NCBI GenBank assembly: GCA_017608045.1
Contig: JAFCGN010000002.1
Span: 116,151-180,150, forward strand
Reading direction: 5' to 3'
Origin: Candidatus Parvarchaeota archaeon
GTDB lineage: Archaea > Nanobdellota > Nanobdellia > JAFCGN01
DNA: 64,000 bases
Shown: one piece after another, positions 559 to 32,437 of the stretch
Position numbering within the stretch: the first letter of the stretch is position 1
Layout of the letters: the number at the start of each line of letters is the position of its first letter
Translations under genes and position numbers: made by a program
The notes under the pieces: model-generated
The model's database searches: none
Told to the model about the DNA's origin: nothing
The model's input: only the letters and a program-made list of their open reading frames with translations

Positions 559-3066
559 TTAAAACAATTTAAGAAATTTTTCAGCTGTTTTTGTTAATTG
601 CTTTAAAGGAACTTTCCAATGCTGGGATACTTCAAATAATTTGTTTTCCACTTTTTGAATTTCTTCAATTGTTTTAAGCGGTTTTAAGGTTTCTGATTCT
701 TCTTTGATAAATTCTGCTTCTTTGCCTTTTCTTTTCTTTTTCCATTTTTCAAATAATTCTTTTGATTTTTCAGGCAAGTTATCTATTTTACATCCTAATA
801 ACTCGCAAAGTTTGTTTGCTTTTTTGACTAATTCATCTGAGAATTCTTTAACCCTTTTTCCTGCTATTAATTCAATTCTTACAACACTATCACTTATTTT
901 ACTTGAACCTATTATTTTTATTATTTCCGCGTCTTTTGTATTATCAAGATGCGTGCCACCGCATGCTTCAACATCCCAGTTCGGGATTTCCACAATTCTT
1001 ATCATTTTTCCAGGCACTGCTCCTCCTTGGTATATTGTGAATCCGTATTTTGCTTCAGCTTCATTTCTTGGAAGAACGAACTTGTTTATGCGTATTTTTT
1101 CTTTTATTATTTTGTTTGCTAAAGTTTCTATTTCAATTATTTCTTTTCTATTCAAGGATTTATAATGCGTGATGTCTAATCTTGCTTTTTCAACTGTTTT
1201 TTCAGCACCTGCCTGCCATACGTGTTTTCCAAGAACTTTTTTTGCAGCACCATTGATTATATGCACGCTTGTATGATGTTGTGTTAGTTGTTTCCTTCTT
1301 TGAATATCTACTTTTCCAATAACTTCTTCATTTTTTTCAGAATTAAATTCTCCTTCAATTTCATGAATGAAATGATTGCCTTGTTTGAATACTCTTACAA
1401 CCTTGAATTCTTTTCCATTTTTGATTAAAATGCCTTTATCACTATCCTGTCCGCCGCTTTTGCCATAAAATAAGGTTTTATTAAGAATAACATATTTCTT
1501 GTTTATCACTTTAAGAACTTTTGCTGTAAATTCAAGGTTTTCAAATGGTTTTTTGTCATAAAATAAGATTTCTGTTTCAGGAATGTCTCTTAAATCAAAT
1601 TCTTCTCTTTTTTTTATAATCTGTTTTTTTTCATGCAATGAAGTTATTTTTTGATAAAAATTAGTTGTTTTTGGTATCTTAACACCATTATTTTTTAAAA
1701 TCTCAGGACTTATTCCATGAGAGTCATATAAAATAATGAGGTCTTTTAATTCCAATTTCTTGTTTGCATATTTTTTAATTATTTTTTTGAATTTTTTTCT
1801 TGTTGCAATGTATTTTTCAATTTCATTTTTTAATATTTCTTTAACATCACTTGTTTTATCTTTAATTTCTGGGAATAGTTTTGCTGTTTCCTTTGTTTGC
1901 CATTCAATAATTTTTAGGAAGTCTAAATCAATTTTGTTTTTTCTTATAAAATCAAAAGCTCTTCTGAAAATAACTCTTAAGTTATAACCCCCCCCGCTAT
2001 TTGAAGGAAGAGTGCCGTCACCGATTGATATTATAAGACTTCTTGAATGTTCAGCAATACTATAAATAGCTTTTATTTTTTCAACTGCTTTTTTTAATTC
2101 ATTAACATCTACAGAAATTTTTTTAGAAATTTTTTTCCACGTTTTTTCTACATCTCTTGCTTCATCAATATTTAAAGAACCTGCTAAAAGAAAATAACGA
2201 TTTAAAACTTCGTTTTCTTTAAAATCAAATTCTTTTTTTAATTTGCTAATAGTATATGGAAAAACTGCATCATATGCAGTATTCGTGCCTTGCGTGAACC
2301 ATGGTATTCTTTCTAAACCCATTCCCATGTCTAAAACTTTTAAATTAAGATTTTCATACCCTTTGTCTGTTTGTTTGAATTGCATGTATACTTGATTTGC
2401 TAATTCAAGACCATGACTGAAGATTTCAATGCTTGGGCCAAAATTTCCACTTCCCGCCCATACATCTTCATGAAATTTTAAGTTTTCAAAATTAATGCCA
2501 ATACTTTTATTAAACCATGAAGAAAGATGGTCTAAGTATTCAGAAGGAGAGTAGTTTCTTGGTTTTTCAAATCTATGCTGACCAACCATGACAAAGCCTG
2601 TAAAATGTTTTCCTGTTACACCCACATTTTCAATGTCATTAAATCTTAAACAAAACTGAGGAACAATAAGTGGATTAGCAGGGGGTTCGCTAATTCCTTG
2701 TACTACAAATGGAATAAAATCATCAATACTTGCTTGTACAAAATATAAATCCTTTCTCCATCTTGCATTTACAGGATAACGTTTAATTTCTGCATACCCT
2801 AATTTTTTAAAATAATTGCTGAAATCTTTCCAAGCACTAACATATGTTAATTGTTTTTTACTTATTCTTTTGTTAATGAAGGAATATTTTTCTTCACAAT
2901 CGCCGCAAAATTCTTCATTTTTAATACTCCAAAAATATCGCCCGCATTTTTTACATTTTTTTCTTGTTAATCCATTCTTTTTAAAAAAATTAATAGGATA
3001 ATATTTTTCAGCATTTTTTGTAAAAATGTTTCCATATTTTTTTTTTAATTCTTTATCACTAAGCAT
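559..3066 (-). CDS. alaS: Alanyl-tRNA synthetase, archaeal type
   Basis: 835 aa. N-terminal Cys-rich zinc motif (CKKCGRYF...CGDC), class II core. C-terminal editing and C-Ala region with HHTSVH...H and CGGTH motifs. Confidence 0.88.
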   Translation of the reverse strand: MLSDKELKKKYGNIFTKNAEKYYPINFFKKNGLTRKKCKKCGRYFWSIKNEEFCGDCEEKYSFINKRISKKQLTYVSAWKDFSNYFKKLGYAEIKRYPVNARWRKDLYFVQASIDDFIPFVVQGISEPPANPLIVPQFCLRFNDIENVGVTGKHFTGFVMVGQHRFEKPRNYSPSEYLDHLSSWFNKSIGINFENLKFHEDVWAGSGNFGPSIEIFSHGLELANQVYMQFKQTDKGYENLNLKVLDMGMGLERIPWFTQGTNTAYDAVFPYTISKLKKEFDFKENEVLNRYFLLAGSLNIDEARDVEKTWKKISKKISVDVNELKKAVEKIKAIYSIAEHSRSLIISIGDGTLPSNSGGGYNLRVIFRRAFDFIRKNKIDLDFLKIIEWQTKETAKLFPEIKDKTSDVKEILKNEIEKYIATRKKFKKIIKKYANKKLELKDLIILYDSHGISPEILKNNGVKIPKTTNFYQKITSLHEKKQIIKKREEFDLRDIPETEILFYDKKPFENLEFTAKVLKVINKKYVILNKTLFYGKSGGQDSDKGILIKNGKEFKVVRVFKQGNHFIHEIEGEFNSEKNEEVIGKVDIQRRKQLTQHHTSVHIINGAAKKVLGKHVWQAGAEKTVEKARLDITHYKSLNRKEIIEIETLANKIIKEKIRINKFVLPRNEAEAKYGFTIYQGGAVPGKMIRIVEIPNWDVEACGGTHLDNTKDAEIIKIIGSSKISDSVVRIELIAGKRVKEFSDELVKKANKLCELLGCKIDNLPEKSKELFEKWKKKRKGKEAEFIKEESETLKPLKTIEEIQKVENKLFEVSQHWKVPLKQLTKTAEKFLKLF

Positions 3067-3158: not shown

Positions 3159-3626
3159 GTGATTATAATTATGACAAAAAAAGCACAAGCAGCACTTGAA
3201 TACTTAATGACCTATGGTTGGGCAATATTGATTATAGCAATAATTGCAGGAGCACTTTATTATATGAATGTTTTCAGTAGTAGTTGTGATTCTCCAATTT
3301 CAACAGGATTTTCAGGTGTGGAAATTTTAAGCAATGATTTTGCCTTTACTTCAGAAGGTGATCTTGAGATTATACTGACAAATGCTGCAGCGGAAACAGT
3401 GCATATTCTAAATGTTACTGTTCAAAACGGAACATCTACAGATGTAGCAAATACAACAGCACTAACTCTTGACGCAGGAACTACAATAACATATACTTTT
3501 TCAGGATTAACAAGTCCTGGAAGTAAAGGAAGTTGTTATACAGAAGATGTTGCAATCTATTATACAAGAGGAGACTTAAGCACAATTTTCAAGAGCACAG
3601 GTTCATTAAGGCACGCAGTGCAGTAA
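3159..3626 (+). CDS. Archaeal type IV pilin-like protein (class III signal peptide)
   Basis: N-terminus MTKKAQAALEYLMTYGWAILIIAIIAGALYY is a classic archaeal prepilin signal (KK-AQAALEYL, then a hydrophobic helix). Small Thr/Asn-rich mature domain with N-x-S/T sequons. Confidence 0.75.
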   Translation: MIIIMTKKAQAALEYLMTYGWAILIIAIIAGALYYMNVFSSSCDSPISTGFSGVEILSNDFAFTSEGDLEIILTNAAAETVHILNVTVQNGTSTDVANTTALTLDAGTTITYTFSGLTSPGSKGSCYTEDVAIYYTRGDLSTIFKSTGSLRHAVQ

Positions 3627-3706
3627 AAAACCATTCTTTTTTTATTTTTTTTAAATAATTTGGTTAATTAGAAATGTTATTATTTCCAAATTAATTAAAC
3701 TACAAT

Positions 3707-4117
3707 ATGAAAAATAAAAACTCTCAAGTTGCTGTTGAATATTTGATTATGTTAGGCATAGTGCTTCTTGTATTTTCAGTTATGTGGGGTAGAGTAAGTC
3801 AGGTTGCCCAATTAACAAGAATAAATGTTCGCATAAGTAATGCAGAAACTTATCTTGAAAAATTGAAAACAAACATAGATTTAGTTAATTTTTATGGTGA
3901 GCCAACTAAAATAGAAATGATTGCTTATGTTCCTGATGGTATATCTTTTGTTAATCTCTCAAATAATGAAATAATTTTGGGTGTTGAAACAACAGCAGGA
4001 CAAACAATTATGGGTGTAAAAACAAGAGCCAATTTAAGTGGTATCCTGCCGTATAAGAGAGGGACTTACAGGGTTTTAATAAAAGCAGTTGGAGACGAAG
4101 TAAATTTAAGTTATTAA
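3707..4117 (+). CDS. Pilin-like protein (class III signal peptide)
   Basis: MKNKNSQVAVEYLIMLGIVLLVFSVMW: charged tip, Q-x-A-x-E-Y-L, hydrophobic helix. Second gene in the pilin run. Confidence 0.6.
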   Translation: MKNKNSQVAVEYLIMLGIVLLVFSVMWGRVSQVAQLTRINVRISNAETYLEKLKTNIDLVNFYGEPTKIEMIAYVPDGISFVNLSNNEIILGVETTAGQTIMGVKTRANLSGILPYKRGTYRVLIKAVGDEVNLSY

Positions 4118-4530
4118 TGGCGGGGGTTATAATGAAAAATAAAAAATCACAATCAACGATTGAGTTTATTGGTGTTTTTTCAATATTTTTAATTTTAACA
4201 AGTACTTTTTATTTGCTTTTTATAAATTATTCAAATAACATAATTAAAAAAAGAGCATATTTTCAAACAGAAAATTTATTAGAACTAATCTCTTCAAAAA
4301 TAAATACTGTTGTTTTAGAAGGAGATGGGTATAAAACAATATTGGATGTTCCGCATAAACTTCTTGGTTCTGATTATAATATTACAATTGAAGGAAATGT
4401 TCTTGTTTTAACACTTGACAAATACGGCATTTCTTTAACAAAAGAATTCCTGCCTGTAAATATTTCTGGAAAACTTAAGAAAGGAACCAATAATCTTAAA
4501 AATTTTAAAGGAGGAGTTGTGATTGAATAA
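4117..4530 (+). CDS. Pilin-like protein (class III signal peptide)
   Basis: MKNKKSQSTIEFIGVFSIFLILTSTFYLLF. Start overlaps the previous stop (TAATG). Confidence 0.5.
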   Translation: MAGVIMKNKKSQSTIEFIGVFSIFLILTSTFYLLFINYSNNIIKKRAYFQTENLLELISSKINTVVLEGDGYKTILDVPHKLLGSDYNITIEGNVLVLTLDKYGISLTKEFLPVNISGKLKKGTNNLKNFKGGVVIE

Positions 4531-5023
4531 AAAATCTCAATTGTTTAGCATTGATGTTGGAATAACATTTTTGGTTTTTGTAGGTTTTATTGTTATTTTT
4601 GTTAATTTATGGAATCAAAATGTTAGACAATTAGATGAAAGTTTGTTAAAACAGAATCTTCAAGAAAAAATTTCGTTTTATTCAGATTATCTTGTAAGAA
4701 CGAAAGGGTATCCTGAGGATTGGAATGCATCTAATGTTTTGCTCATTGGTTTTGCAGGAGATGAAGAAAACATTCTTTTAATTTCAAAAATAGAAAAATT
4801 TATGACACTCAATTATACTTTTGCGAGAAGTAAGATGAATTTAAATGGAAAAGAATTTTACTTAAAAATTATTGATGTTATAAACAACAAAACACTTTAT
4901 TCTTATGGAAACTTGAGTTATCAGAGTGCAACAAATTTAATTCAGATTACACGTTTTTGTCTTGTAAATGACAGTACAAAGTTGATTCCTTCAAAACTTT
5001 TGTTAGGGGTGTGGCAAGATTAG
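4523..5023 (+). CDS. Pilin-like protein (class III signal peptide); TTG start overlapping the upstream gene
   Basis: MNKKSQLFSIDVGITFLVFVGFIVIFVNLW: N-terminal KK plus hydrophobic helix. Confidence 0.5.
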   Translation: MNKKSQLFSIDVGITFLVFVGFIVIFVNLWNQNVRQLDESLLKQNLQEKISFYSDYLVRTKGYPEDWNASNVLLIGFAGDEENILLISKIEKFMTLNYTFARSKMNLNGKEFYLKIIDVINNKTLYSYGNLSYQSATNLIQITRFCLVNDSTKLIPSKLLLGVWQD

Positions 5024-5033
5024 AAAAACATTT

Positions 5034-6917
5034 TTGCATAAAAAAGCATTTATTTTTAGTTTAGAACTCCTTGTTGCTTTAAGCATAATTTTTTCTTCAA
5101 TTTATCTTTTAACAACTACAATTCCTTTTTTTGAAGATTCTTTAATAAAAGAAGAAAATCTAAATGTTATGGGGCAAGACTTGATGCAATTTATTACAAA
5201 AACAAGGATAAGTGATTTGCAAGACTTACAATTAGTTCAAGATTATCTCAATCTTGGTTTGATTGAATATAAGGATATAAATGCTTCGTTTGTTGATGTT
5301 ATAGGCACTTTTATGATACAAAACAAGTTTGATTATGCCAAGAATTTAACAGAAGAGGTTTTCGAAAAACTTATTCCAGATAATGTTGGTTATCAAGTTT
5401 ATTTTGATAATGTTTCAATAGCAAACAAGACAATAAGCAATCCTTCTTCAGAATTGACTTTAAAAACATTGTTAAGCGGGTATGCCTTAAATCGTTCTCT
5501 TGAAGGATATATTGCTCGCGCGTGGCTCAATCTTGCGTCATTCAATGAAACAAAAATAATAAGCATTTCTCCAATTGGAAGCGGGTTCAAAAATAATACT
5601 TGTGTTAAATGGTTATGGTGGTGGTGTACAAAAACTGTTGAAGGAGGTAATTTGACTATAGTGAAGAGTTTTGATATTCCTGCGGATATAGAAACTGTTG
5701 TTAATGCTGAACTAATGCTTTCAATTCATGAAGAAGGCGGAAGAGTCTGGATTTATGTGAATGATGTTCTTCAACACGAAGAATACTATGACGACAAAGT
5801 TTATGAAAGAATTCCAATACACAATGTAACTTCTGGGACTAATGTAATTAAAATTATTCAAGAGATGCCATCAAACTATCATGCGCACACACATCCCGGG
5901 TTTTTGTTGAAAGTGGATTATGTGAGAGTAAGAAGGTTAGGTTATAAAGAAAACAAGACAGTTGTTATTGATAAAAGATTTCCCGAGATAATTGCTTCTC
6001 CATCAGTTTGGGAAACTTTTTCTTTTGATATACCAAGAGGGGATAACATAACTAATGCCACTCTTCATTTAGAAGTTTTAAATGTTGATGATTGGGGGGA
6101 AATATGGGTGAATGATAATCAGGTTTGGGTAAATTCATCAGCACAAGGAAATATGACAATTGATTTGGATATACTTCCTTATGTGAATCACGAAAATAAT
6201 GTTTCAACAGGGGAGACGAATGTCATTGCCCCTTATTTTGATATAGAATCTCAAAATGATTACCCAACAGAAAATGCAAGAGGAAATATTATAATTTCAA
6301 ATAATTCATTTGTGCATCTTGAATATCAAAAACCTGAAACAATTCAAAAGTATGGACTCATACCCATTACGCATTCTTTTGAATTTGGGGGAACAGCAGA
6401 GAATGACAAGAGCGTGGAGTTTCCATTAAGTTATCATGAATTAATTAATGCATATGTGCATTTAGCCCAAATTTATAGTTGGAAAGTGGCGTTAGCTGCA
6501 TGGAATGAAAATCAAACTGCTCCAGTTTGGGATAATACATTAAAAGAATGGGTTCCTGAGGAAATGCAGTTTTTTAAATCATCTACTGGAAGAAATGTTC
6601 CTTCTTCTATATACATTCCAATAGACATGCTTGTTAAAAATTCAACAAATTATGTTGAGGCAAGAGATTTTGGAGGAACAGGAAACAAAATATTACCAGA
6701 AAGCACTATTGAATACACTTATTTAGCGCCAGCCCAAGTTGGTTACGCTGATGTTTATGAAACAGAAATACAAGCAATAAATGATGCTATAAATAGACTT
6801 CAAGAGTTAGTTGCTCCATATAACATTACAGGAGAAGTTAATTATTCTGTGTCCTCTGTAACAAATGTAAGATGGCTGTGGGGTCCTGCAGAGGTTAAGG
6901 TGGTGCTTTCAAGATGA
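5034..6917 (+). CDS. Large pilin-like surface protein or adhesin (class III signal-like N-terminus with ~600-aa sequon-rich ectodomain)
   Basis: HKKAFIFSLELLVALSIIFSSIYLL at the N-terminus. Very many N-x-S/T sequons (NAS, NLT, NVS, NKT, NVT, NIT, NAT, NSS, NMT...). TTG start. Confidence 0.5.
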   Translation: MHKKAFIFSLELLVALSIIFSSIYLLTTTIPFFEDSLIKEENLNVMGQDLMQFITKTRISDLQDLQLVQDYLNLGLIEYKDINASFVDVIGTFMIQNKFDYAKNLTEEVFEKLIPDNVGYQVYFDNVSIANKTISNPSSELTLKTLLSGYALNRSLEGYIARAWLNLASFNETKIISISPIGSGFKNNTCVKWLWWWCTKTVEGGNLTIVKSFDIPADIETVVNAELMLSIHEEGGRVWIYVNDVLQHEEYYDDKVYERIPIHNVTSGTNVIKIIQEMPSNYHAHTHPGFLLKVDYVRVRRLGYKENKTVVIDKRFPEIIASPSVWETFSFDIPRGDNITNATLHLEVLNVDDWGEIWVNDNQVWVNSSAQGNMTIDLDILPYVNHENNVSTGETNVIAPYFDIESQNDYPTENARGNIIISNNSFVHLEYQKPETIQKYGLIPITHSFEFGGTAENDKSVEFPLSYHELINAYVHLAQIYSWKVALAAWNENQTAPVWDNTLKEWVPEEMQFFKSSTGRNVPSSIYIPIDMLVKNSTNYVEARDFGGTGNKILPESTIEYTYLAPAQVGYADVYETEIQAINDAINRLQELVAPYNITGEVNYSVSSVTNVRWLWGPAEVKVVLSR

Positions 6918-8167
6918 ACAGAAGAATAAATAAGAAATCTTTTATGTACAGTGTTATTTCAGTTGCACTCATATTCTTGGTTGTTAATTTAGTTTTGATT
7001 GAAACAGAGTTTTCAAAAAATTCTTTTGAACCAAGAAGAACAAAACTTCTTGGCGATCAAATACACCGTTTTGAGCTTAATGTTGAAAAAGACCTTGAAA
7101 AAAGCGTGGATGTTGTTGCAAGAAGAGCTATTGTTAGTGTTATTGATTATTCAATAAATGGAGAACACTCTATTGATAACGCCACGCTTGCTCTTAAAGA
7201 ATTAATGATGAATGGCACAGTGAATGGCGAGCCAATGTTTTTATTGGAAAACAATACTTTAAATTTTTGGTCTCAAAAAATTGATAATCTTGGGAAAAAA
7301 ATGGGGTTTGATTCAAAGTTGAATTATACTGGGATTGAAATCAAGCTCGTTGATTCTTTTGATTTAGCGTTTATTGTAAATTCAACTATAAAAATTACAG
7401 ATGAATTAACAAATTCATCTCAAACAAGAAATGTAAGCACAACTGTTGTTGTGCCTTTAGATGGTTTTGAAGATCCTCTTTATCCTATGAATTCTTTTGG
7501 AAGATTGAGAAAACTTATTTCTCCTTCTCCATATTTAACTTATACTTCAAAAATAGCAAATAGTTCTCAAATACAAGGAAGTATTAGGGGGACAACAATA
7601 ATTGTTCCTTCAAACAATTTAACTGAAATTCAGAATATAAATTCAAAGATTACAAAGATACTCATTGTTCCTGATGCTTCTTTAATTAATGATTCTTTAT
7701 TGAATCAATTTAAAGGATTTATTTCAGAAACAAGTTTTTCTACAACAAGCACAGCAGCGTATATGCTCGGTGTTAAAAATGCTACAAAGATTATCCCAAA
7801 CAATACTGCGCTTGTTATTGACGAAGAAACAGAAACGCTTTGGAACTTAAATAATTTTGATAATCTTATAACAAATAATTATTATGTTGAATCAACAAGA
7901 GGACCAAGTTTTCTTGATAGGATTGAAGGACGTTTATATAATACAAGAGAATATGGTTTAGCAAGCATGGTTAATTTAGTTGAATTTGAAAATGCATATA
8001 TAATTATTAATGACACGCGTTCCATAATTGATTATGAATATTTTAATGAAACAGGCCCTGTTGGAAAACAAGTTAGGGGTTCTTATTATGAGTGGTTGCG
8101 CGTAAGCAATAATCTTGATGGTAATGTTACTCAAACACAAAAATATGGTGTGGAGGAATTAGTATGA
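6914..8167 (+). CDS. Large pilin-like surface protein (class III signal-like N-terminus)
   Basis: MNRRINKKSFMYSVISVALIFLVVNLVLIE. Dense N-glycosylation sequons. Overlaps the upstream gene by 4 nt. Confidence 0.45.
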   Translation: MNRRINKKSFMYSVISVALIFLVVNLVLIETEFSKNSFEPRRTKLLGDQIHRFELNVEKDLEKSVDVVARRAIVSVIDYSINGEHSIDNATLALKELMMNGTVNGEPMFLLENNTLNFWSQKIDNLGKKMGFDSKLNYTGIEIKLVDSFDLAFIVNSTIKITDELTNSSQTRNVSTTVVVPLDGFEDPLYPMNSFGRLRKLISPSPYLTYTSKIANSSQIQGSIRGTTIIVPSNNLTEIQNINSKITKILIVPDASLINDSLLNQFKGFISETSFSTTSTAAYMLGVKNATKIIPNNTALVIDEETETLWNLNNFDNLITNNYYVESTRGPSFLDRIEGRLYNTREYGLASMVNLVEFENAYIIINDTRSIIDYEYFNETGPVGKQVRGSYYEWLRVSNNLDGNVTQTQKYGVEELV

Positions 8168-9669
8168 AAAAAATATTCCTTGTTGTTATATTATTATGTG
8201 CGTTCCTTTTAGCAAATGCAGAGAGCGAAGACGTTTACATTGTTGATGATTTTTCAGATATAAGTGATTGGAATTTAGCTGTTGATAATGGTGCAAATAT
8301 AAGCACAAGCAGTAATTTTGGAGGTAATACATTGCTTTTTAATAATCAAGAAAATTATGGTGATAACCTTCAAAAAATAACTGAAATATACAATCCTTTT
8401 CTTGATTACAATCAAATATTTTTTTATTTTTATAATTATGAACCTTATTCAGATTTGCTTTTAAGAATAACAGATAGGGACGGAGTTAAATCCTGCATAA
8501 GTTCAATATCCTATGGGTTTCCAACAAATAAATGGATTTTATATAATAGGTCTTTAAGATATTTTCAGGATTGTCTTGACAAAAATTTTAAGACAATAGG
8601 TAAAATTGAATTAATAATTAATAATTATCCGACAAAAGTGGAAATTACTCCAATTAAAATACTTTCAACTAATGCAACACTTATAAATAAGACGCAACAA
8701 CCTGGCAATATATCAATAAATAACATAGAAGTGAATCCAAGTATTGCTCCAAAAGGAAGAGGCATTTCAATAACTTCTACAATTAATGCAGATTCTTTTA
8801 TACATTATGTAATCCTAAATCTTTATTCTCTAAATTATTCTAAATCTTTTTTAATGGAAAGAATAATGGGGAATGATAGTTTGGCAGTGTATAGATATGT
8901 TTTCATTCCTCAGTCAGAAAATCCAACAGGAAATTACAATTTTACAATAAAGGCAATTGATTATGGAGGTAATGAATCTTTAACAAATTATTATAAATTT
9001 ATTGTGAATGATAGTTTAATTATTAATGCGTCTTATAATCATACTATTGGACCGGGTAAAACACTTGTTATAAAAGGCAATGTATTTGATTGCAATAATA
9101 TGACAACGAATGGTGTAATTACTTTAACAATAGATAATTTTACAGAAACAAAAGAGTTTATTAATGACTTTGCTTTTTTTTATGAACTTCCTTCTGAGGC
9201 TCCAATAAAAAAAATCAAATATTTTAATTTAACAGTAAAAGATAATAAGGGAAACAAAGGAGAAAATATTTTTCCATTTTTTGTTTCGCCTGAACTTGAA
9301 ATTTCTTCAACAGCAGTCCCGCCTGAAGGTTCTCCAGGAGATGAAATTCATATCAATGTGAATGTAAGTTATAAGAAAACAAAAGAACCTGTTTCAGGTT
9401 TAAATTTGACAATTAATAACAAAAATTCTTCTTTAAAAGAAAAAGAGCCTGGAGTTTATGAAGGAACAATGATTTTAACAGATGATGATATTGGTGTTTT
9501 AAAACCGAAAATATTGTATGAAAGTGCTGTTATTCAGGAATTAAATACGACTATTCTTGTAAAGAAAAAAACATTTTTAGATAGGAAAGAATTATTGTTA
9601 ATCTTTACTATTATTGTTTTTATTTTTTTTATATTTTTAACAATAAAAATTTTTAGAGAAAACCAATAA
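8164..9669 (+). CDS. Secreted, C-terminally membrane-anchored surface protein
   Basis: N-terminal Sec-type signal MKKIFLVVILLCAFLLANAESE. C-terminal hydrophobic anchor LLLIFTIIVFIFFIFLTIKIF followed by a basic tail. Sequon-rich. Confidence 0.45.
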   Translation: MKKIFLVVILLCAFLLANAESEDVYIVDDFSDISDWNLAVDNGANISTSSNFGGNTLLFNNQENYGDNLQKITEIYNPFLDYNQIFFYFYNYEPYSDLLLRITDRDGVKSCISSISYGFPTNKWILYNRSLRYFQDCLDKNFKTIGKIELIINNYPTKVEITPIKILSTNATLINKTQQPGNISINNIEVNPSIAPKGRGISITSTINADSFIHYVILNLYSLNYSKSFLMERIMGNDSLAVYRYVFIPQSENPTGNYNFTIKAIDYGGNESLTNYYKFIVNDSLIINASYNHTIGPGKTLVIKGNVFDCNNMTTNGVITLTIDNFTETKEFINDFAFFYELPSEAPIKKIKYFNLTVKDNKGNKGENIFPFFVSPELEISSTAVPPEGSPGDEIHINVNVSYKKTKEPVSGLNLTINNKNSSLKEKEPGVYEGTMILTDDDIGVLKPKILYESAVIQELNTTILVKKKTFLDRKELLLIFTIIVFIFFIFLTIKIFRENQ

Positions 9670-9702
9670 TTAATTAAATTCACACCACTTAATACTTTTA
9701 TA

Positions 9703-10155
9703 ATGATAGAAACAAAAATTGACAAGTTGCTTTCTTTAGTTAATAAAAGCAAAAAAATTTCTTTAAGCGATGCAGCTGAAAAGTTAGCTGTTAGTGAAGA
9801 GCAAATTGAAGAATGGGCAATTTCTTTATCAAAAGACAATATTGTAAAGCTTGTTTATCCAACTAATTTGTTTGAACAGCCATATTTGGAAAGTGTTAAC
9901 GAAATAAGAAAACCTAAAATAAAAAAAACGCGTAAAAAGAAAAAAAATGTTCAAATCAAGGATACAATAAAAAAGGTTGTTAAAAGAGAGGAAAAATATA
10001 GAAAAGCAAGAAAAAAAGTGCATTTCAAAGCAAAAAAAAGAAAACTTGTTTATTTATGGTTTTTCACATTTCTTTTGCTTATAATTTTGTTATTTTTTAT
10101 TTTTAAAGAAAAAATATTTTATTTTTTAAAAATTTTAATTCAAAAGGTGAGATGA
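9703..10155 (+). CDS. Membrane-tethered winged-helix protein (N-terminal wHTH, Lys-rich linker, C-terminal TM helix)
   Basis: N-terminus KIDKLLSLVNKSKKISLSDAAEKLAVSEEQIEEWAISLSKDNIVKL is wHTH-like. Lys-rich linker KPKIKKTRKKKKN...KAKKRK. C-terminal helix LVYLWFFTFLLLIILLFFIF. Stop abuts the ATPase start. Confidence 0.4.
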   Translation: MIETKIDKLLSLVNKSKKISLSDAAEKLAVSEEQIEEWAISLSKDNIVKLVYPTNLFEQPYLESVNEIRKPKIKKTRKKKKNVQIKDTIKKVVKREEKYRKARKKVHFKAKKRKLVYLWFFTFLLLIILLFFIFKEKIFYFLKILIQKVR

Positions 10156-11724
10156 GTGATTATAGATTCCTATGAAATAAAATCCGAATTTTTTAAAGCG
10201 AAAGTTAATATTGAAGATTCACCAAAAGATTTTGTTCCAAATTATTTGTTGAGAACGCCTGTTGTTGGAAAAGCAACACTTTCTGTGCTTGAAGATGTTA
10301 AAGATGAATTGATTTCAAAAATAAGAATTGTTTCTTCTGAATTTCTTGATTCTAAAAAAACAAAGGAGATTAAAAATAATTTTATTAAAAGAGCAAAAGA
10401 ACTTTTATCAAAGAAATTGACTGATGTAAATCCTCAACTCATTCAAGTGCTTACAGGAATGCTTGTTGATGACATGCTTGGGTTAGGAATAATTGAAACA
10501 CTTTTGCGTGATGATTATCTTGAAGAAATTGTTGTAAATGGAGCTAACAATAATATTTGGGTTTATCACAAAAAATATGGGTGGCTTAAAACGAATATTA
10601 TTGTTCCTTCTGAAATGCAAATAAAAAATTATGCTGACCTTGTTGGAAGAAGAGTTGGAAGACAAATAAATAATCTTCATCCATTAATGGATGCGCATAT
10701 GACAAGCGGTGATAGAATAAATGCTACATTATACCCGATTTCTTCTCATGGCAATACAATTACAATAAGAAGGTTTAGTAGAAGTCCTTGGACAATAACT
10801 GATTTTATTGAAAATAAAAGCATTAGTTTAGAATTGGCTGCTTTTCTCTGGATGGCTATTGAGAATGAAACTTCGATGATTGTAAGCGGAGGAACTGCAA
10901 GCGGAAAAACGAGTTTATTAAATGTTCTTACACCATTCATACCTCCAAACCAAAGAATCATCTCTATAGAAGACACGCGCGAACTTCAGTTGCCTGAATT
11001 TCTTCATTGGGTGCCTATGACAACAAGGCAACCAAATCCTGAAGGAAAAGGAGAAATTAGTATGCTTGACATACTTGTAAATTCTCTTCGTATGCGTCCA
11101 GACAGGATTGTTGTAGGCGAAGTTAGGAGACAGAGAGAAGCAGAAATACTTTTTGAAGCAATGCATACAGGGCACAGTGTTTACGCCACATTGCATGCGG
11201 AAACTGCAGAACAAACAATTAGAAGACTCATAAATCCTCCAATAAATATTCCAGAAAGCATGATACAAACACTTCCTCTTATTTGTGTTGCTTTTAGACA
11301 CAGAAAACTTGGTATAAGAAGGGTTTTGCAAGTTGCTGAAATTTTAGATGAATCTTCAGAATACATTTCAAAGAAAACTAAAAACAAAATACGCAGCGCT
11401 TCAAACATTAACATTCTTTATGAATGGAGTCCAAAAACAGACAAAATAAAAAAAGTTGGTGAGAGTAAGAGGATTTTTAATGAATTGTCTCTTCGTTCAG
11501 GAATGACGCGTGAAGAAATAAAAAAAAGTTTGAAAGAAAGGGAGATTGTTTTAAAATATTTGGTTAAGCACAATATTAGAACTGTTAATGAAGTTGGAAA
11601 AATAATTAGTAAGTATTATGTAATGCCACAGAAGATTTTGAAATTAATAAAAAAAGATGCATCTCCATTAGATGTTCTTGAAGCAAAAAAAGAAGAAAAA
11701 CATGCAAAATCAAGAAGAAAATAA
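10156..11724 (+). CDS. Type IV pilus/archaellum-family secretion ATPase (FlaI/PilB/TadA/VirB11-like)
   Basis: Walker A GGTASGKTSLLNVL. Walker B/Asp box IVVGEVRRQREAE. His box ATLHAET. GTG start immediately after the upstream TGA. Confidence 0.85.
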   Translation: MIIDSYEIKSEFFKAKVNIEDSPKDFVPNYLLRTPVVGKATLSVLEDVKDELISKIRIVSSEFLDSKKTKEIKNNFIKRAKELLSKKLTDVNPQLIQVLTGMLVDDMLGLGIIETLLRDDYLEEIVVNGANNNIWVYHKKYGWLKTNIIVPSEMQIKNYADLVGRRVGRQINNLHPLMDAHMTSGDRINATLYPISSHGNTITIRRFSRSPWTITDFIENKSISLELAAFLWMAIENETSMIVSGGTASGKTSLLNVLTPFIPPNQRIISIEDTRELQLPEFLHWVPMTTRQPNPEGKGEISMLDILVNSLRMRPDRIVVGEVRRQREAEILFEAMHTGHSVYATLHAETAEQTIRRLINPPINIPESMIQTLPLICVAFRHRKLGIRRVLQVAEILDESSEYISKKTKNKIRSASNINILYEWSPKTDKIKKVGESKRIFNELSLRSGMTREEIKKSLKEREIVLKYLVKHNIRTVNEVGKIISKYYVMPQKILKLIKKDASPLDVLEAKKEEKHAKSRRK

Positions 11725-12639
11725 GTGATTTTTATGAATAAACTCAATAATGTAATAAAAATACCAATGGCTTTATTTCCTTATAGTGTTTTAGAATCTT
11801 TGTCTAAAAGATTTCTTGAAAGAAGCAGAATTCTGCTTAAAGCATATCCTGAAATAAAGATGGCAATAATACAATCAAATTTTGAAATTGAACCAGAAGA
11901 ATATTTAAGTGCAGGCATTTTTTCATCAATAATTAATGCGTTTTTAGTTTTTTTCTTATCTTTCTTTTTTTCTATGATATTTAAATTAAGTATTCTTAAT
12001 TCTTTTTTAATTTCTTTATTGTTCTTATTTGCTGTTTTTTTTATTAATTTTTTTATTATTATGAACTACCCTAAAATATTTGCTCTTAAAAGAGGAAGAA
12101 GAATGGAGGAAAACATGCTTTATGCTATGCGAGATTTGTTGATTAAACTTAAATCCGGGGTTAGTTTATATGACTCTTTTGTTGCTCTTTCAAGAAGAAG
12201 TTATGGAGACCTTTCAGAAGAGTTTAAAATAACAACAAAAAAAATGAGTGCAGGACAACCGCAAATTAGTGCTATAGAAGAAATGGCGTTGCGTAATCCT
12301 TCTCAAAATTTTAGAAAAATACTTTGGCAGATAAGCAATGCTATGAGAGCTGGAGCAGATATATCTAATACTCTTGAATCTATAATTGATAATCTTTCAA
12401 AAGAGCAAAAAGTTAAAATAAGGAATTTCGGTGGAGAATTAAATCCAATTGCTATGATGTATATGGTTATTACAGTTGTTGCACCCACAATGGGAATAAC
12501 TTTATTAGTTGTTTTAAGCAGTTTTGCTTCTTTACCTATTGGCAAGAATACTTTTTATGCAATTCTTGGCGTAATCTCTTTTTTTCAATTAATTTTTTTG
12601 ACAATAATAAAATCTAAGAGGGAGGCAATAGGCATATGA
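11725..12639 (+). CDS. Pilus platform membrane protein, TadB/FlaJ-like (T2SS-F domain)
   Basis: Polytopic. Cytoplasmic T2SSF-like segment YAMRDLLIKLKSGVSLYDSFVALSRR...ISAIEEMA. Directly downstream of the ATPase. Confidence 0.6.
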   Translation: MIFMNKLNNVIKIPMALFPYSVLESLSKRFLERSRILLKAYPEIKMAIIQSNFEIEPEEYLSAGIFSSIINAFLVFFLSFFFSMIFKLSILNSFLISLLFLFAVFFINFFIIMNYPKIFALKRGRRMEENMLYAMRDLLIKLKSGVSLYDSFVALSRRSYGDLSEEFKITTKKMSAGQPQISAIEEMALRNPSQNFRKILWQISNAMRAGADISNTLESIIDNLSKEQKVKIRNFGGELNPIAMMYMVITVVAPTMGITLLVVLSSFASLPIGKNTFYAILGVISFFQLIFLTIIKSKREAIGI

Positions 12640-13661
12640 AGATTAAAATGAATAGGATTTATTATCTTTTATTTAATTTAGTTCCTATTAATTTTTTTAA
12701 CAAACTCAAAAAATTATACACTTATTCTAACATTAATGTTGAACCAAAAAAATTAACAGGTTTTTTTGTTTTTTTCAGCATTTTTTTCAGCATAACTTTT
12801 GTTTTTTTACTTTTTCTTTTTATGCACTCAAAAAAAATTGTTTTAAGTTTTTGGATTCTTCTCCCTTCAATTCTTTTTCTCTCAATTATTTCTATTTTTA
12901 GCATTTACTTAGTGCTTTTATTAATTTCAACGAAAAGAGGAAGGTTTGTAGATCAAATTCTTCCAGATGTTCTGCTTTTAATTTCAACAAATCTGAAAAG
13001 TGGTATGAGTCCTGATAGAGCAATAATGCTTGCTGCGCGCCCTGAATTTGGACCTCTTGAAAATGAATTCAAAAGAGTTGCTAAAGAAACTATTGCAGGA
13101 AAAGAACTTGTATACTCTTTATCAAAACTTCCTGAAAATATTCATTCTAAAACTTTGAGAAGAGCTATTGATTTAATAATTGAAGGATTAGAAAATGGAG
13201 GGGAACTTTCTTCTCTTCTTGAACAAATAGCTAATGACATAAGAGAAATCGATATTCTTGAAAAAGAGCTTCAAGCAAATGTAATGATGTATGTTATGTT
13301 TATCTTAATTGCAGTGGGTTTTGGAGCACCGCTTTTATTTGCAATAAGCACGCATCTCGTTGGGACACTTACAAGCGTTTCTTCTACAATTTCTCTTCCG
13401 CAAGAAGGTGTTCCAACAGCAGGTAATATTCCTATTAATATTAATTTTAATAGTTTGTCAGTGTCTCCAGAATTCATAAAATTTTATTCTGTTCTTGCAA
13501 TGATTTTTGCATCAATATTTGGTAGTTTAATCATTGGTGCTATAAGAACAGGGAAGTTAAGAGATGGATTAAAGTATATGCTTCCTCTCATAATTGTTTC
13601 ATTAGCCTTGTTTTTTTTGACAAAAAAAGGATTAGCAACAATAATATTTGTAGGAAATTGA
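12636..13661 (+). CDS. Pilus platform membrane protein, TadC/FlaJ-like (T2SS-F domain)
   Basis: LISTNLKSGMSPDRAIMLAARPEFGPLENEFKRVAKETIAGKEL is T2SSF-like. Multiple TM helices. 4-nt overlap with the upstream gene. Confidence 0.65.
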   Translation: MKIKMNRIYYLLFNLVPINFFNKLKKLYTYSNINVEPKKLTGFFVFFSIFFSITFVFLLFLFMHSKKIVLSFWILLPSILFLSIISIFSIYLVLLLISTKRGRFVDQILPDVLLLISTNLKSGMSPDRAIMLAARPEFGPLENEFKRVAKETIAGKELVYSLSKLPENIHSKTLRRAIDLIIEGLENGGELSSLLEQIANDIREIDILEKELQANVMMYVMFILIAVGFGAPLLFAISTHLVGTLTSVSSTISLPQEGVPTAGNIPININFNSLSVSPEFIKFYSVLAMIFASIFGSLIIGAIRTGKLRDGLKYMLPLIIVSLALFFLTKKGLATIIFVGN

Positions 13662-20262: not shown

Positions 20263-21420
20263 TTAAATTATTTTTTTGAACATTGCGAGAGCAATCAAAA
20301 GCATTATAATTCCTGAAACTAATTTCATCCACTTTTTTTCTTTCCCTCTCCATTTTTCTAATTTTTTTGGATTCCCTCCTTTATATACAATTAAAAGTAT
20401 TAAAAATAAAGGCAGGACAAAAATGATATTGTAAATGAAAAGATAAAATATTGCTTTTGTTCTTATGTTTGTTGCTAATAATGACAGAATTGCAAGATAC
20501 ATTCCTCCTGTGCAAGGAAGTTCGAAAAGGGCAACGAAAGCACCAAGAATTAATGCTGCAGGAAAAGTTGCTTTTTTAATATATTTTTCTATTAATGGTT
20601 TTTTATTTTCAGGTATCTTAAAACTTATTCCTTTCCCATACCAAAAGAAATCCTTTATGTTAATTATGCCAATTATGATTAAGATAATTATTGCAATATT
20701 TCTTATAATAATTCCTATTATTGATATTTGGATTGCTTTAAGCAAACCAAGGCCTGCAAAGAAATAAACAATGAAGACCATAAAAATATAAGTCACACCT
20801 ATGAGGAGTATCTTCTTTTTTGCTTTTATACTAAATAAATAAACAAGAAGGAAAATAAGCACGCCAAATGCGCAGGGATTAAAACTATCAGCAAGAGCAG
20901 CAGATAAAATAGCAAATATTGTAATATTTCTTTTTGAATTAATTATTGTTGTTTCTTCTTTTAACGTGTATTCATATGGATTAACAACGCCTTCTTTGTA
21001 TTTTTTAATTGCATTGTTAATAATTAATTTATCTTCTGCAGATGGTTTTGGACTTGAGCACCCAACAATATAGTCTTCGCCTATAATTAACGTTGGCACT
21101 CCACCTTCTTTGTAAATATCCTTTCCATATTTTTTTGAAATATTTTCAAAAAATTTTAAATTTGTTTCATTTTGGTAAATTTCAAAATATTTAATGTCTA
21201 ATTTAGGGTTTTCTTTTTCAAGTGTATTCAAATACTCTTTTAAAGCAGCACAATGAGGACAACCCAAACCCCAAAATAAATACCCATGAATTAATCCATC
21301 ATCTGGAATGTTGCTTTGATTTTCTAATGCAGAACTTAAATTAAGAGTATTTAAGATTAGAAAAACTATTGGAAGTATTCCTAAAATCCTGTTGTGATTT
21401 TTTTTTATCATTTTAATCAC
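20263..21420 (-). CDS. Thiol:disulfide interchange membrane protein: secreted thioredoxin domain fused to a CcdA/DsbD-type transmembrane domain
   Basis: Signal-like N-terminus. Trx active site GCPHC. TM region with conserved Cys in NPCAFGVLIF and ELPCTGGMY (CcdA signature). Confidence 0.7.
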   Translation of the reverse strand: MIKMIKKNHNRILGILPIVFLILNTLNLSSALENQSNIPDDGLIHGYLFWGLGCPHCAALKEYLNTLEKENPKLDIKYFEIYQNETNLKFFENISKKYGKDIYKEGGVPTLIIGEDYIVGCSSPKPSAEDKLIINNAIKKYKEGVVNPYEYTLKEETTIINSKRNITIFAILSAALADSFNPCAFGVLIFLLVYLFSIKAKKKILLIGVTYIFMVFIVYFFAGLGLLKAIQISIIGIIIRNIAIIILIIIGIINIKDFFWYGKGISFKIPENKKPLIEKYIKKATFPAALILGAFVALFELPCTGGMYLAILSLLATNIRTKAIFYLFIYNIIFVLPLFLILLIVYKGGNPKKLEKWRGKEKKWMKLVSGIIMLLIALAMFKKII

Positions 21421-21460: not shown

Positions 21461-21946
21461 ATGTTTCAAAAAATGAAACCAAAAAATAAGTCTGTTTTTA
21501 CTCTATTAAGCATAGTTGTTTTTATTTTTCTTGTTTCAACCATAAGTGCATACTATGATATTAAAGCGAGAGAAGGACAACTATGTGGTTGCAAGCCATC
21601 TTTATCAATTATCATAACTTTGTTGTCTTCAGCGGGCATTGCTGTTGGAATTGTTTTGTCAAACGTTATCACACAAGGAGAAGAAATAAAAAAACAAGAA
21701 ATAGATACATTACCATTTTTGGATTTTCTTGAAAGTGATGAAAGAATGATAATTTTAAAATTAATAGAAAACAAGGGGAGAATACCTCAAGCAAAGTTGA
21801 ACAAACTAGATGGTTTTAGCAGAGTAAAGGTTCATAGAACAATAGAAAAACTTAAAGCAAAAGGGATTATTCTTAAGGAAAGAACAGGTAAAGTAAATAA
21901 AATTATTTTAAACTCTAAATATAATCTGCTTTTAAAAAAAGATTAA
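21461..21946 (+). CDS. Membrane-anchored wHTH regulator (N-terminal TM helices, C-terminal winged helix)
   Basis: TM segments (VFTLLSIVVFIFLV; IIITLLSSAGIAVGIVL). C-terminal LKLIENKGRIPQAKLNKLDGFSRVKVHRTIEKLKAKGII is MarR/TrmB-like. Confidence 0.45.
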   Translation: MFQKMKPKNKSVFTLLSIVVFIFLVSTISAYYDIKAREGQLCGCKPSLSIIITLLSSAGIAVGIVLSNVITQGEEIKKQEIDTLPFLDFLESDERMIILKLIENKGRIPQAKLNKLDGFSRVKVHRTIEKLKAKGIILKERTGKVNKIILNSKYNLLLKKD

Positions 21947-31867: not shown

Positions 31868-32437
31868 TTACACTAATTTATAAACGCCTTTTTTTGGTTC
31901 AAAAACATCACCTAATTCCATAAGTGTTTTTAGAATTTCTTTTATTTTTTCTTCTTTAATATTTAAATTCTCTTTCAAGCTTTCCATGTTCATGCCATTG
32001 TTTTCTTTAAGAAGTTTAATTAATCTTGTTATTTCATCATTTTCTGCATCTTTATTTATATTCTTTGTTAAACCTTCTTTTTTTGTCAGTATTTCCCTAA
32101 TTATTTTATGAAAATAAAATTCATTTGGGTTTAATTTTTTTATGAATTCTGGTTGAACATAAACTTCTTCATTATAATTTTTTAGGAAACCAATAACTAA
32201 TACTTTGTCAGATTCCTTAATATTTTCCACAGTTTCTACATTGTCGAATATTCTTAATCCAATAACGCCTGTGCCATCATCAATACTAAAATAACAATAC
32301 TTGTTTTCTTCACCAATAAATTTTTTTAAAATAATGCCAATTAATCGTATTCTTTGCGGTGTTTCACTGAAATAATTTTTAATATTTTCTATTTTTTCAT
32401 AAACCGCTGTTATTCTTTGAGTAAAAATACTTACCAC
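31868..32437 (-). CDS. RPA-like OB-fold protein with C-terminal winged-helix-like region, co-operonic with mcm
   Basis: OB-like core FSIDDGTGVIGLRIFDN…KVLVIGFLKNYNEEVYVQPEF. C-terminal helical region LKENLNIKEEKIKEILKTLMELGDVFEPKKGVYKL. 7-nt overlap with mcm. Confidence 0.4.
   Translation of the reverse strand: MVSIFTQRITAVYEKIENIKNYFSETPQRIRLIGIILKKFIGEENKYCYFSIDDGTGVIGLRIFDNVETVENIKESDKVLVIGFLKNYNEEVYVQPEFIKKLNPNEFYFHKIIREILTKKEGLTKNINKDAENDEITRLIKLLKENNGMNMESLKENLNIKEEKIKEILKTLMELGDVFEPKKGVYKLV

Follow-up and report, generated by a model that had tools for sequence, protein, structure and literature searches.

Eleven open reading frames (ORFs), all on the plus strand, lie between positions 3159 and 13661 of a 64,000-nucleotide (nt) stretch of contig JAFCGN010000002.1 (GCA_017608045.1, positions 116,151 to 180,150) from Candidatus Parvarchaeota archaeon, referred to here as the window, and were found where a first-pass annotation made from the sequence alone had placed them. 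Their products comprise six proteins with a pilin-type N-terminus, a glycoprotein with a Sec signal and a C-terminal anchor, a winged-helix (wH) protein, a T2SSE ATPase and two T2SSF proteins, which probably supply all structural and motor parts of a type IV filament (TFF) adhesion pilus of the DPANN type. The first-pass annotation had recognised type IV pilus machinery, and the ATPase, the T2SSF pair and the six pilin-like N-termini all agree with it. The genes from 3171 to 13661 (+) form one tight operon in a window of ~29% GC, with intergenic gaps of -8 to +33 nt throughout, except for 80 nt 3' of pil1, and the block is flanked on both sides by housekeeping genes on the opposite strand. No tRNA or Rfam family was found within or near the locus. 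The features are listed below; a slash marks the predicted leader cut, lengths are in amino acids (aa) and TM denotes a transmembrane helix.

3171-3626, plus strand: pil1, probable major pilin, 151 aa, MTKKA/QAALEYLMTYGWA, strict class III motif.
3637-3692, plus strand: intergenic region after pil1, with an oligo-T run (3637-3652) and a 29-nt block (3664-3692), kept in the closest related locus (L001).
3707-4117, plus strand: pil2, small pilin, MKNKNS/QVAVEYL, relaxed motif, sub-threshold Class_IIIsignal match (E=0.0014).
4117-4530, plus strand: pil3, small pilin, KNKKS/QSTIEF, relaxed motif and orthologues.
4523-5023, plus strand: pil4, small pilin, MNKKS/QLFSIDVG, relaxed motif and orthologues.
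5034-6917, plus strand: pil5, modular pilin/adhesin, 627 aa, MHKKA/FIFSLE, strict motif, 20 N-glycosylation sequons.
6914-8167, plus strand: pil6, pilin-like, 417 aa, INKKS/FMYSVIS, relaxed motif, 15 sequons.
8164-9669, plus strand: surf7, type I membrane glycoprotein, Sec-type signal MKKIFLVVILLCAFLLANA/E, C-terminal TM 477-497, 19 sequons.
9703-10155, plus strand: wH protein, 150 aa, with winged helix 2-54 (nt 9706-9864), K/R linker and TM 115-134 (nt 10045-10104).
10156-11724, plus strand: pilus assembly ATPase, 522 aa, Pfam T2SSE (E=2.9e-35).
11725-12639, plus strand: F1, TadB/TadC-like platform protein, ~5 TM, single T2SSF domain (E=9.1e-18).
12636-13661, plus strand: F2, second platform protein, single T2SSF domain (E=2.2e-17).
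559-3066, opposite strand: alanyl-tRNA synthetase, the flank before the pilus block.
13767 onward, opposite strand: small GTPase, a 617-aa protein with no Pfam match and a probable prolyl-tRNA synthetase, the flank after the block.

Using the ATPase as the query gave 32 loci for comparison, with 45-84% identity, in Aenigmat-, Iain-, Micr-, Woese- and Nanohaloarchaeota; Nanohalobium, Nanosalina and Micrarchaeota MAGs are among them. The closest one (L001/L005, 'Ca. Parvarchaeota') is fully syntenic and its ATPase is 84-85% identical to that of the window. Since the closest genomes are those of DPANN archaea, the episymbiotic setting that had been suggested for the pilus fits. The fuller loci share the order small pilins, giant pilin, pil6-like protein, an anchored protein of 370-390 aa, wH protein, ATPase, F1 and F2, and the pil1-type pilin usually lies 3' of F2 in relatives, while mainly the wH-ATPase-F1-F2 part is retained in Micrarchaeota and Nanohaloarchaeota.

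The one poorly known trait of the locus is its wH protein. A winged helix-turn-helix (wHTH), a poly-Lys linker and a C-terminal TM had been described for the product of 9703-10155, and all three were recovered. Searched against the PDB, the profile of the ~52-aa wH domain matched the helix-turn-helix (HTH) of LrpA (E=3.3e-7), as well as AsnC and ArsR regulators and eS25, whereas single members of the family gave weak, scattered Pfam matches (HTH_24, TrmB, MarR, TFIIE, PCI) and reached no curated family. The linker is helical, consists of K/R to 53% and leads into TM 115-134, an arrangement that predicts a tail-anchored protein facing the cytoplasm. The structure prediction proposed as a check was carried out with AlphaFold2 (AF2) on a 3-sequence alignment and returned helices at 5-16, 21-27 and 32-44 plus a long helix at 76-149; the three helices of suitable length are thus there, although confidence in the wH part is low.

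When a wH profile hidden Markov model (HMM) was iterated over the fetched loci, the domain was detected at E<=1e-17 in the gene immediately 5' of the ATPase in 29 of the 32 loci that contain an ATPase ORF, the window being counted among them; it was also found directly 5' of the ATPase in L016. The three exceptions are cut by a contig start less than 600 nt from the ATPase, and therefore all 30 informative loci carry the wH domain directly upstream, the outcome of the co-occurrence analysis with pilus ATPases that had been suggested. Gaps between the two genes are mostly -4 to +4 nt, with stop and start codons often overlapping, which suggests translational coupling. Outside the domain, which may stand at either end, the wH proteins are hypervariable: they range from 107 to 1028 aa, their partner regions are rich in K/E, in P/A or in Q, or else acidic or long coiled coils, and no further Pfam domain was found in them. 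A TM was detected in the window lineage and in L012 only, so that the membrane tether stressed by the first-pass annotation is real here but lineage-specific, the conserved trait being a wH domain before the ATPase. In helix 3 of the domain the net charge averages -2.4, and a conserved EE(W/C) stands in place of the R/K of LrpA.

Word-indexed homologue searches with the wH protein returned three near-identical proteins only, and the domain alignment (A1) gave no matches in the same kind of search. Away from the pilus ATPase, in ~0.55 Mb of fetched loci plus the window, the wH domain was detected as second copies in two Micrarchaeota loci and as a weak match to an RPA32-like protein. The second copies are divergently transcribed proteins of 463-564 aa (L015, 6671-8062, minus strand; L017, 6276-7970, minus strand). 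The RPA32-like protein (window 31868-32437, minus strand; OB fold plus RPA_C winged helix) was matched at E=7e-6, showing that the HMM picks up generic wHTH signal below a significance of ~1e-6. In six Micrarchaeota loci (L024-L028 and L031) the wH protein is a 399-aa coiled-coil form; in the same loci an additional gene lies between the ATPase and F1 (in L031 at 11482-12045, 187 aa, no Pfam match).

The ATPase itself was confirmed as a member of the FlaI/TadA family by its T2SSE match, and its catalytic motifs are intact (Walker A 245-252, Asp box 268-273, Walker B 314-324, His box 338-347). Its closest solved relative is Archaeoglobus fulgidus GspE (PDB 2OAP; E=1.4e-74 over residues 2-495), followed by FlaI (6.6e-59) and the Tad ATPase CpaF (1.4e-52). 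Among the NCBIfam models, FlaI scored 296 bits (cut-off 550), TadA 197 (373) and BasE 150 (1000); all three equivalog scores lie far under their cut-offs, and the protein is therefore regarded as a pilus-type ATPase rather than an archaellum, Tad or bindosome equivalog.

The two separate T2SSF proteins were likewise confirmed: with 64.9 and 63.6 bits, F1 and F2 both exceed the Pfam gathering score of 25.2. They are paralogues (cross-matches ~1e-14), the position of F1 after the ATPase is conserved among relatives, and no solved relatives were found by sequence for either. The split platform had been presented as unusual, a view that does not stand because two TadC-like genes are documented for several archaeal systems, namely clade 1 (Epd) and many clade 2 loci (PMC4858521), as well as system 1, subsystems 4A/4B and 'some DPANN' (bioRxiv 10.64898/2026.04.22.720090), and also for the Tad-like clusters of DPANN archaea (PMC6393860 Fig. 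2A; PMC9563170).

In several DPANN relatives the ATPase gene encodes 1000-1535 aa (L032, 7067-10801; L034, 9989-14596; L036, 9587-12592; L033, 9377-12601). An intein (Intein_splicing plus LAGLIDADG_3) accounts for the added length in all three of those scanned (L032, L034 and L036), with two LAGLIDADG stretches in L034; the ATPase of L033 has 1074 aa, and that of the window has no intein.

Recognition of the pilins required more than one line of evidence. When a strict rule of the FlaFind kind ([KR][GA][..] with a hydrophobic stretch) was applied to the 140 window ORFs of >=60 aa, two of them were selected, pil1 and pil5, both in the locus. With S allowed at -1 and N at -2, all six pilins were selected, together with six unrelated or shadow ORFs. 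Common to the six proteins are a hydrophobic helix and a short basic leader with a small residue in position -1. The motif Q-x-A-x-E-Y-L, which had been attributed to all six, applies to pil1-pil3 and fails for the rest, pil5 and pil6 having F after the cut. The class III signal search that had been recommended did give matches, all of them sub-threshold: within the window Pfam Class_IIIsignal matched pil2 alone, and four pil2/pil3 orthologues were matched at the right place (E=1.7e-4 to 1e-3), with scores of 19-23 bits against a threshold of 23.7.

The six proteins are nevertheless predicted to be pilins on the basis of motif, position and orthologues, the last being the decisive support. Higher-GC DPANN relatives have, at the same positions, genes with canonical [KR]G-cut leaders and position-specific signatures: G/QSALEYLMTYGWA for pil1, conserved across DPANN phyla; QVS(M/V)EYL after a [KR][GA] cut for pil2; Q.S.EA for pil3; Q...(V/I)DF for pil4; G/F(A/V)FS.D for pil5; and G/(I/V)(L/I)F(S/T) for pil6. 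The AT-rich window lineage has A or S in place of the -1 glycine. The relaxed motif and the canonical leaders of the orthologues together favour the count of six pilin-like genes.

Translation of pil1 probably starts at ATG 3171 (MTKKA/Q) and not at GTG 3159, as set by the ORF lister. This protein is the most conserved of the locus (91% identity with its L001 orthologue) and belongs to a family of 3806 cluster representatives (E<=0.001), mostly of ~150 aa and aligned over nearly their full length. It is read as the major pilin because of its conservation, its own oligo-T-bounded gene and the very large family. The 29-nt non-coding block downstream, TTAATTAGAAATGTTATTATTTCCAAATT, contains GAAAT-N6-ATTTC and is identical in L001; both this block and the oligo-T run are kept between the two genomes, whereas the flanking spacer has accumulated indels. 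The region 3637-3692 may act as a terminator plus internal promoter/operator. By HMM, pil1, pil2 and pil3 group in one superfamily, while the pil4 family is represented by one copy per locus in 22 loci. About one fifth of the best pil1-family representatives are much longer (260-713 aa; P0024, P0031, P0034, P0038, P0135 and others); in these the pilin module is N-terminal, and fusions to extra C-terminal domains are common.

The claim of two large, sequon-rich pilins holds for pil5 and pil6, and the high N-x-S/T density noted from the sequence extends to surf7. Compared with shuffled sequences, z-scores were 5.9 (pil5), 3.6 (pil6) and 4.8 (surf7), well above what composition predicts, and the three proteins carry 3.2-3.8 sequons per 100 aa versus 0.47 in 22 cytoplasmic window proteins; the ectodomains are enriched 3- to 8-fold in sequons. 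The pil6 family is present in 13 loci, and window pil6 has no acidic residue near +5.

The AF2 model of pil5 (predicted local distance difference test, pLDDT, 81.4) shows tandem beta-sandwiches after the pilin helix and a small helical region. Foldseek related the sandwiches, at domain level only, to jelly rolls with a carbohydrate-binding or accessory role in glycosidases, BcsB, Cry/Vip3 toxins and neuropilin, in agreement with a weak match to the sugar-binding Glyco_hydro_2_N; in Pfam, neither a VWA domain nor a propeller was matched in pil5 itself. The head is accordingly modelled as what appear to be tandem lectin-like jelly rolls. Only eight homologues of pil5 are detectable. With the giant pilins of other DPANN phyla, pil5 has in common only the N-terminal ~55 aa (hhalign 94%), and no shared ectodomain was found beyond them. 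Of the giant pilins at the pil5 position in relatives, the four that were scanned contain a VWA domain and two of these four also LVIVD beta-propeller repeats. Because the N-terminus is common and the head domains differ, the pil5 position is interpreted as a pilin-anchored adhesion module swapped among lineages. Residues 282-289 of pil5 read Y-H-x-H-T-H-P-G and are invariant across all eight homologues; they may form a metal-binding site in the jelly-roll domain.

Regarding surf7, the Sec-type signal and the TM at 477-497 bear out the description of a surface protein with a C-terminal anchor. Pfam gave weak Ig-like matches only, and the family is detectable in close relatives only; elsewhere the position is taken by the N-terminally anchored protein of 370-390 aa, one of which (L008) has a weak PKD match. 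In a Joint Genome Institute contig of the same population (L003), 16 nt (window 9360-9375) are deleted and surf7 is frameshifted before its C-terminal anchor, and another contig (L004) begins exactly at window 9376; the gap reflects a break in the assembly or else variation between strains.

As had been noted, no prepilin peptidase gene is visible: Peptidase_A24 had no match in any multi-TM ORF of the 64-kb window, and the GxGD[..]K motif was not found in them either. Candidate peptidases beside Micrarchaeota loci were rejected, being TrkA-N channel proteins.

In the mechanism proposed here, a prepilin peptidase encoded elsewhere would cut the leaders, and an ATPase hexamer seated on the F1/F2 platform would lift the pilins out of the membrane. 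The filament would consist mainly of pil1, with pil2-pil6 as a priming and tip complex like that of bacterial minor pilins; pil5 would be a modular adhesin, with its lectin-like jelly-roll head attaching to glycans on the host surface; pil6, in which the acidic residue is absent, may be a cap, and surf7 would serve as an accessory membrane glycoprotein. The wH protein would assist the motor from the cytoplasmic side, as an accessory subunit whose acidic wH domain binds the ATPase or the platform. In the window lineage the basic helix and the tail anchor would keep it at the membrane, and in other lineages the wH domain is joined to disordered or coiled-coil regions instead.

That the wH protein is most likely such an accessory subunit and not a DNA-binding regulator is favoured by its position within the operon, its coupling to the ATPase, the non-conserved anchor, the acidic helix 3 and the coiled-coil or disordered partner regions. 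We tentatively go one step further and consider it possible that the wH protein is the fourth core subunit of a DPANN-wide motor (wH-ATPase-TadB-TadC), docking on the ATPase or platform via an acidic, non-DNA-binding winged helix, while its exchangeable tail sets how the motor is held or regulated; if true, it would be the functional counterpart of GspL, PilM-N or ArlX, with a different fold. A membrane-tethered one-component regulator of the pilus operon would also explain some of the features. In Sulfolobus acidocaldarius, ArnR and ArnR1 are membrane-bound HTH activators of the archaellum operon, and the likeness, by description only, lies in an HTH with a membrane anchor beside a TFF operon. 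By profile the wH domain is a genuine wHTH whose best matches among solved structures are regulators of the Lrp/AsnC, ArsR and MarR types, and the conserved 29-nt block with its short inverted repeat lies 5' of pil2. Still, ArnR is a separate transcription unit with sensing domains, whereas the wH gene lies among the operon genes and, in most loci, its translation appears coupled to that of the ATPase; most family members lack the TM, helix 3 is acidic where Lrp is basic, disordered or long coiled-coil partner regions are unusual for regulators, and a 5-nt inverted repeat is weak evidence at 29% GC. A regulator of the ArnR type thus seems unlikely.

The chances are slimmer that the pilus serves chiefly for retraction or for taking up DNA or host nutrients, with the basic linker of the wH protein handling incoming nucleic acid. 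DNA import has been proposed for DPANN pili (PMC9563170), the single ATPase is related to the bifunctional CpaF, and K-rich stretches stand beside the wH domain in the window and several relatives; but the basic stretch is not conserved (elsewhere it is P/A-rich, Q-rich, acidic or coiled-coil), the locus yielded neither a nuclease nor a ComEC-like channel nor a DNA-binding pilin, and the adhesin modules at the pil5 position favour attachment. An archaellum or bindosome-type assembly system is extremely improbable. Although FlaI is the best NCBIfam match of the ATPase and BasE also scores, both fall far short of their cut-offs, the platform is split whereas FlaJ has two domains, and neither FlaH, FlaF/G, FlaX, FlaCDE, an archaellin nor substrate-binding-protein domains were found in the locus; this identity was rejected on the NCBIfam cut-offs and gene content. 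Of the features of the TFF superfamily, the ATPase and the T2SSF platform are both present, and the pilins are predicted by motif and orthology, below the curated HMM threshold. The core machinery is ordinary and the system one of a known kind.

Several points weigh against the adhesion pilus with a wH accessory subunit that we favour. No prepilin peptidase gene was found within the 64 kb, so that pilin processing is a prediction, and the curated class III HMMs remain under threshold. The assignment of pil1 as major and of the others as minor pilins is positional, and glycan binding by pil5 is a guess from Foldseek matches with a TM-score of 0.1-0.2 at domain level only. As for the wH protein, its physical contact with the ATPase is something we infer; the AF2 model has a pLDDT of only ~62 in the wH domain; the argument from helix 3 charge is crude, as one DNA-binding AsnC segment also has -2; and the association was sampled in one ATPase clade, with all relatives chosen by ATPase similarity.

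Among known systems, the locus is closest to the 'Tad-like' loci of DPANN hosts, with which it shares a FlaI/TadA-type ATPase followed by TadB- and TadC-like genes, and surface proteins. DPANN islands described earlier (PMC6393860 Fig. 2A; Makarova et al., 2019) contain FlaI, TadB/TadC, surface proteins and, as another point of likeness, signal-peptide proteins that lack annotation and were read as pilins; 'Tad' clusters without annotated pilins have been described in Nanohaloarchaeota and Undinarchaeota (PMC9563170), and DPANN members of system 1/subsystem 4A are on record (bioRxiv 10.64898/2026.04.22.720090). In contrast, a wH gene, five ordered minor pilins and the exchange of giant-pilin modules are unmentioned in those texts. 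A winged-helix/HTH gene coupled to the ATPase is not mentioned in the texts of PMC4858521, PMC6393860, PMC9563170 or bioRxiv 10.64898/2026.04.22.720090, and in the supplements of PMC4858521 wHTH neighbours are sporadic, each occurring singly and in crenarchaea only. From this non-exhaustive comparison of the literature, the wH-ATPase pair provisionally appears not to have been described previously.

The Epd system of Methanococcus maripaludis (system 1) and its bacterial derivative, the Tad (Flp) pilus, resemble the locus in having two platform genes, one ATPase and many minor pilins, and Epd/system 1 includes an adhesin-like pilin with a galactose-binding-type domain (bioRxiv 10.64898/2026.04.22.720090). 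However, the major-pilin candidate pil1 has 151 aa with a globular part, compared with ~50-70 aa in the Flp/EpdE type, no EppA-type peptidase is present in the locus, and the window ATPase is nearer to A. fulgidus GspE than to CpaF, with a TadA score of 197 bits below the cut-off of 373. The GspE entry 2OAP, though the closest solved relative, is an ATPase-only structure from which no partner is known.

Adhesion modules of these kinds (VWA, beta-propeller or lectin) also occur in bacterial PilY1 and in two modular pilins of Streptococcus sanguinis, PilB (vWA) and PilC (lectin). Like these, the DPANN giant pilins would present an adhesion module on the pilus, here grafted onto a pilin N-terminus as in S. 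sanguinis, whereas PilY1 is not itself a pilin; the likeness is one of domains only, and window pil5 has neither VWA nor propeller. With regard to the wH protein, ArlX/FlaX, GspL and PilM-PilN are motor-associated scaffolds, and the UpsX and AapX genes precede the ATPase in the ups and aap operons of Sulfolobus; the presumed role of all of them is to keep the motor in place, or to regulate it, at the membrane. They have in common with the wH protein that a lineage-specific, non-enzymatic protein, bitopic or coiled-coil, is encoded beside the ATPase, but they lack a wH domain and show no detectable homology to that protein.

Attachment to other cells is the way of life of DPANN archaea, and its mode is poorly understood; published genome surveys mostly stop at a 'Tad-like ATPase plus TadB/TadC, pilins not annotated'. 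The present analysis adds an ordered minor-pilin set, an exchangeable adhesin head and a strict wH-ATPase gene pair whose function is deduced indirectly. The resulting parts list comprises a ~150-aa major pilin family, five position-specific minor pilins, a head-swapping giant pilin and an ATPase-coupled wH protein. Depending on the lineage, the head consists of lectin-like jelly rolls, VWA, or VWA plus a beta-propeller, and its exchange makes it a plausible determinant of host range. The wH partner is a testable candidate for how minimal cells hold or control their only pilus motor.

Elsewhere in the window, the gene for the RPA32-like protein adjoins and overlaps by a few nt a 694-aa ORF, which, judging by its N-terminus, may be MCM-like. 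A second membrane-tethered wHTH protein, unrelated to that of the pilus locus, is encoded at 21461-21946 (plus strand); two TM helices form its N-terminus and a DUF7343 HTH (E=3.8e-9) its C-terminus. Its gene is divergent from 20263-21420 (minus strand), which encodes an 8-TM protein with sub-threshold SfLAP and glutaredoxin-like matches.

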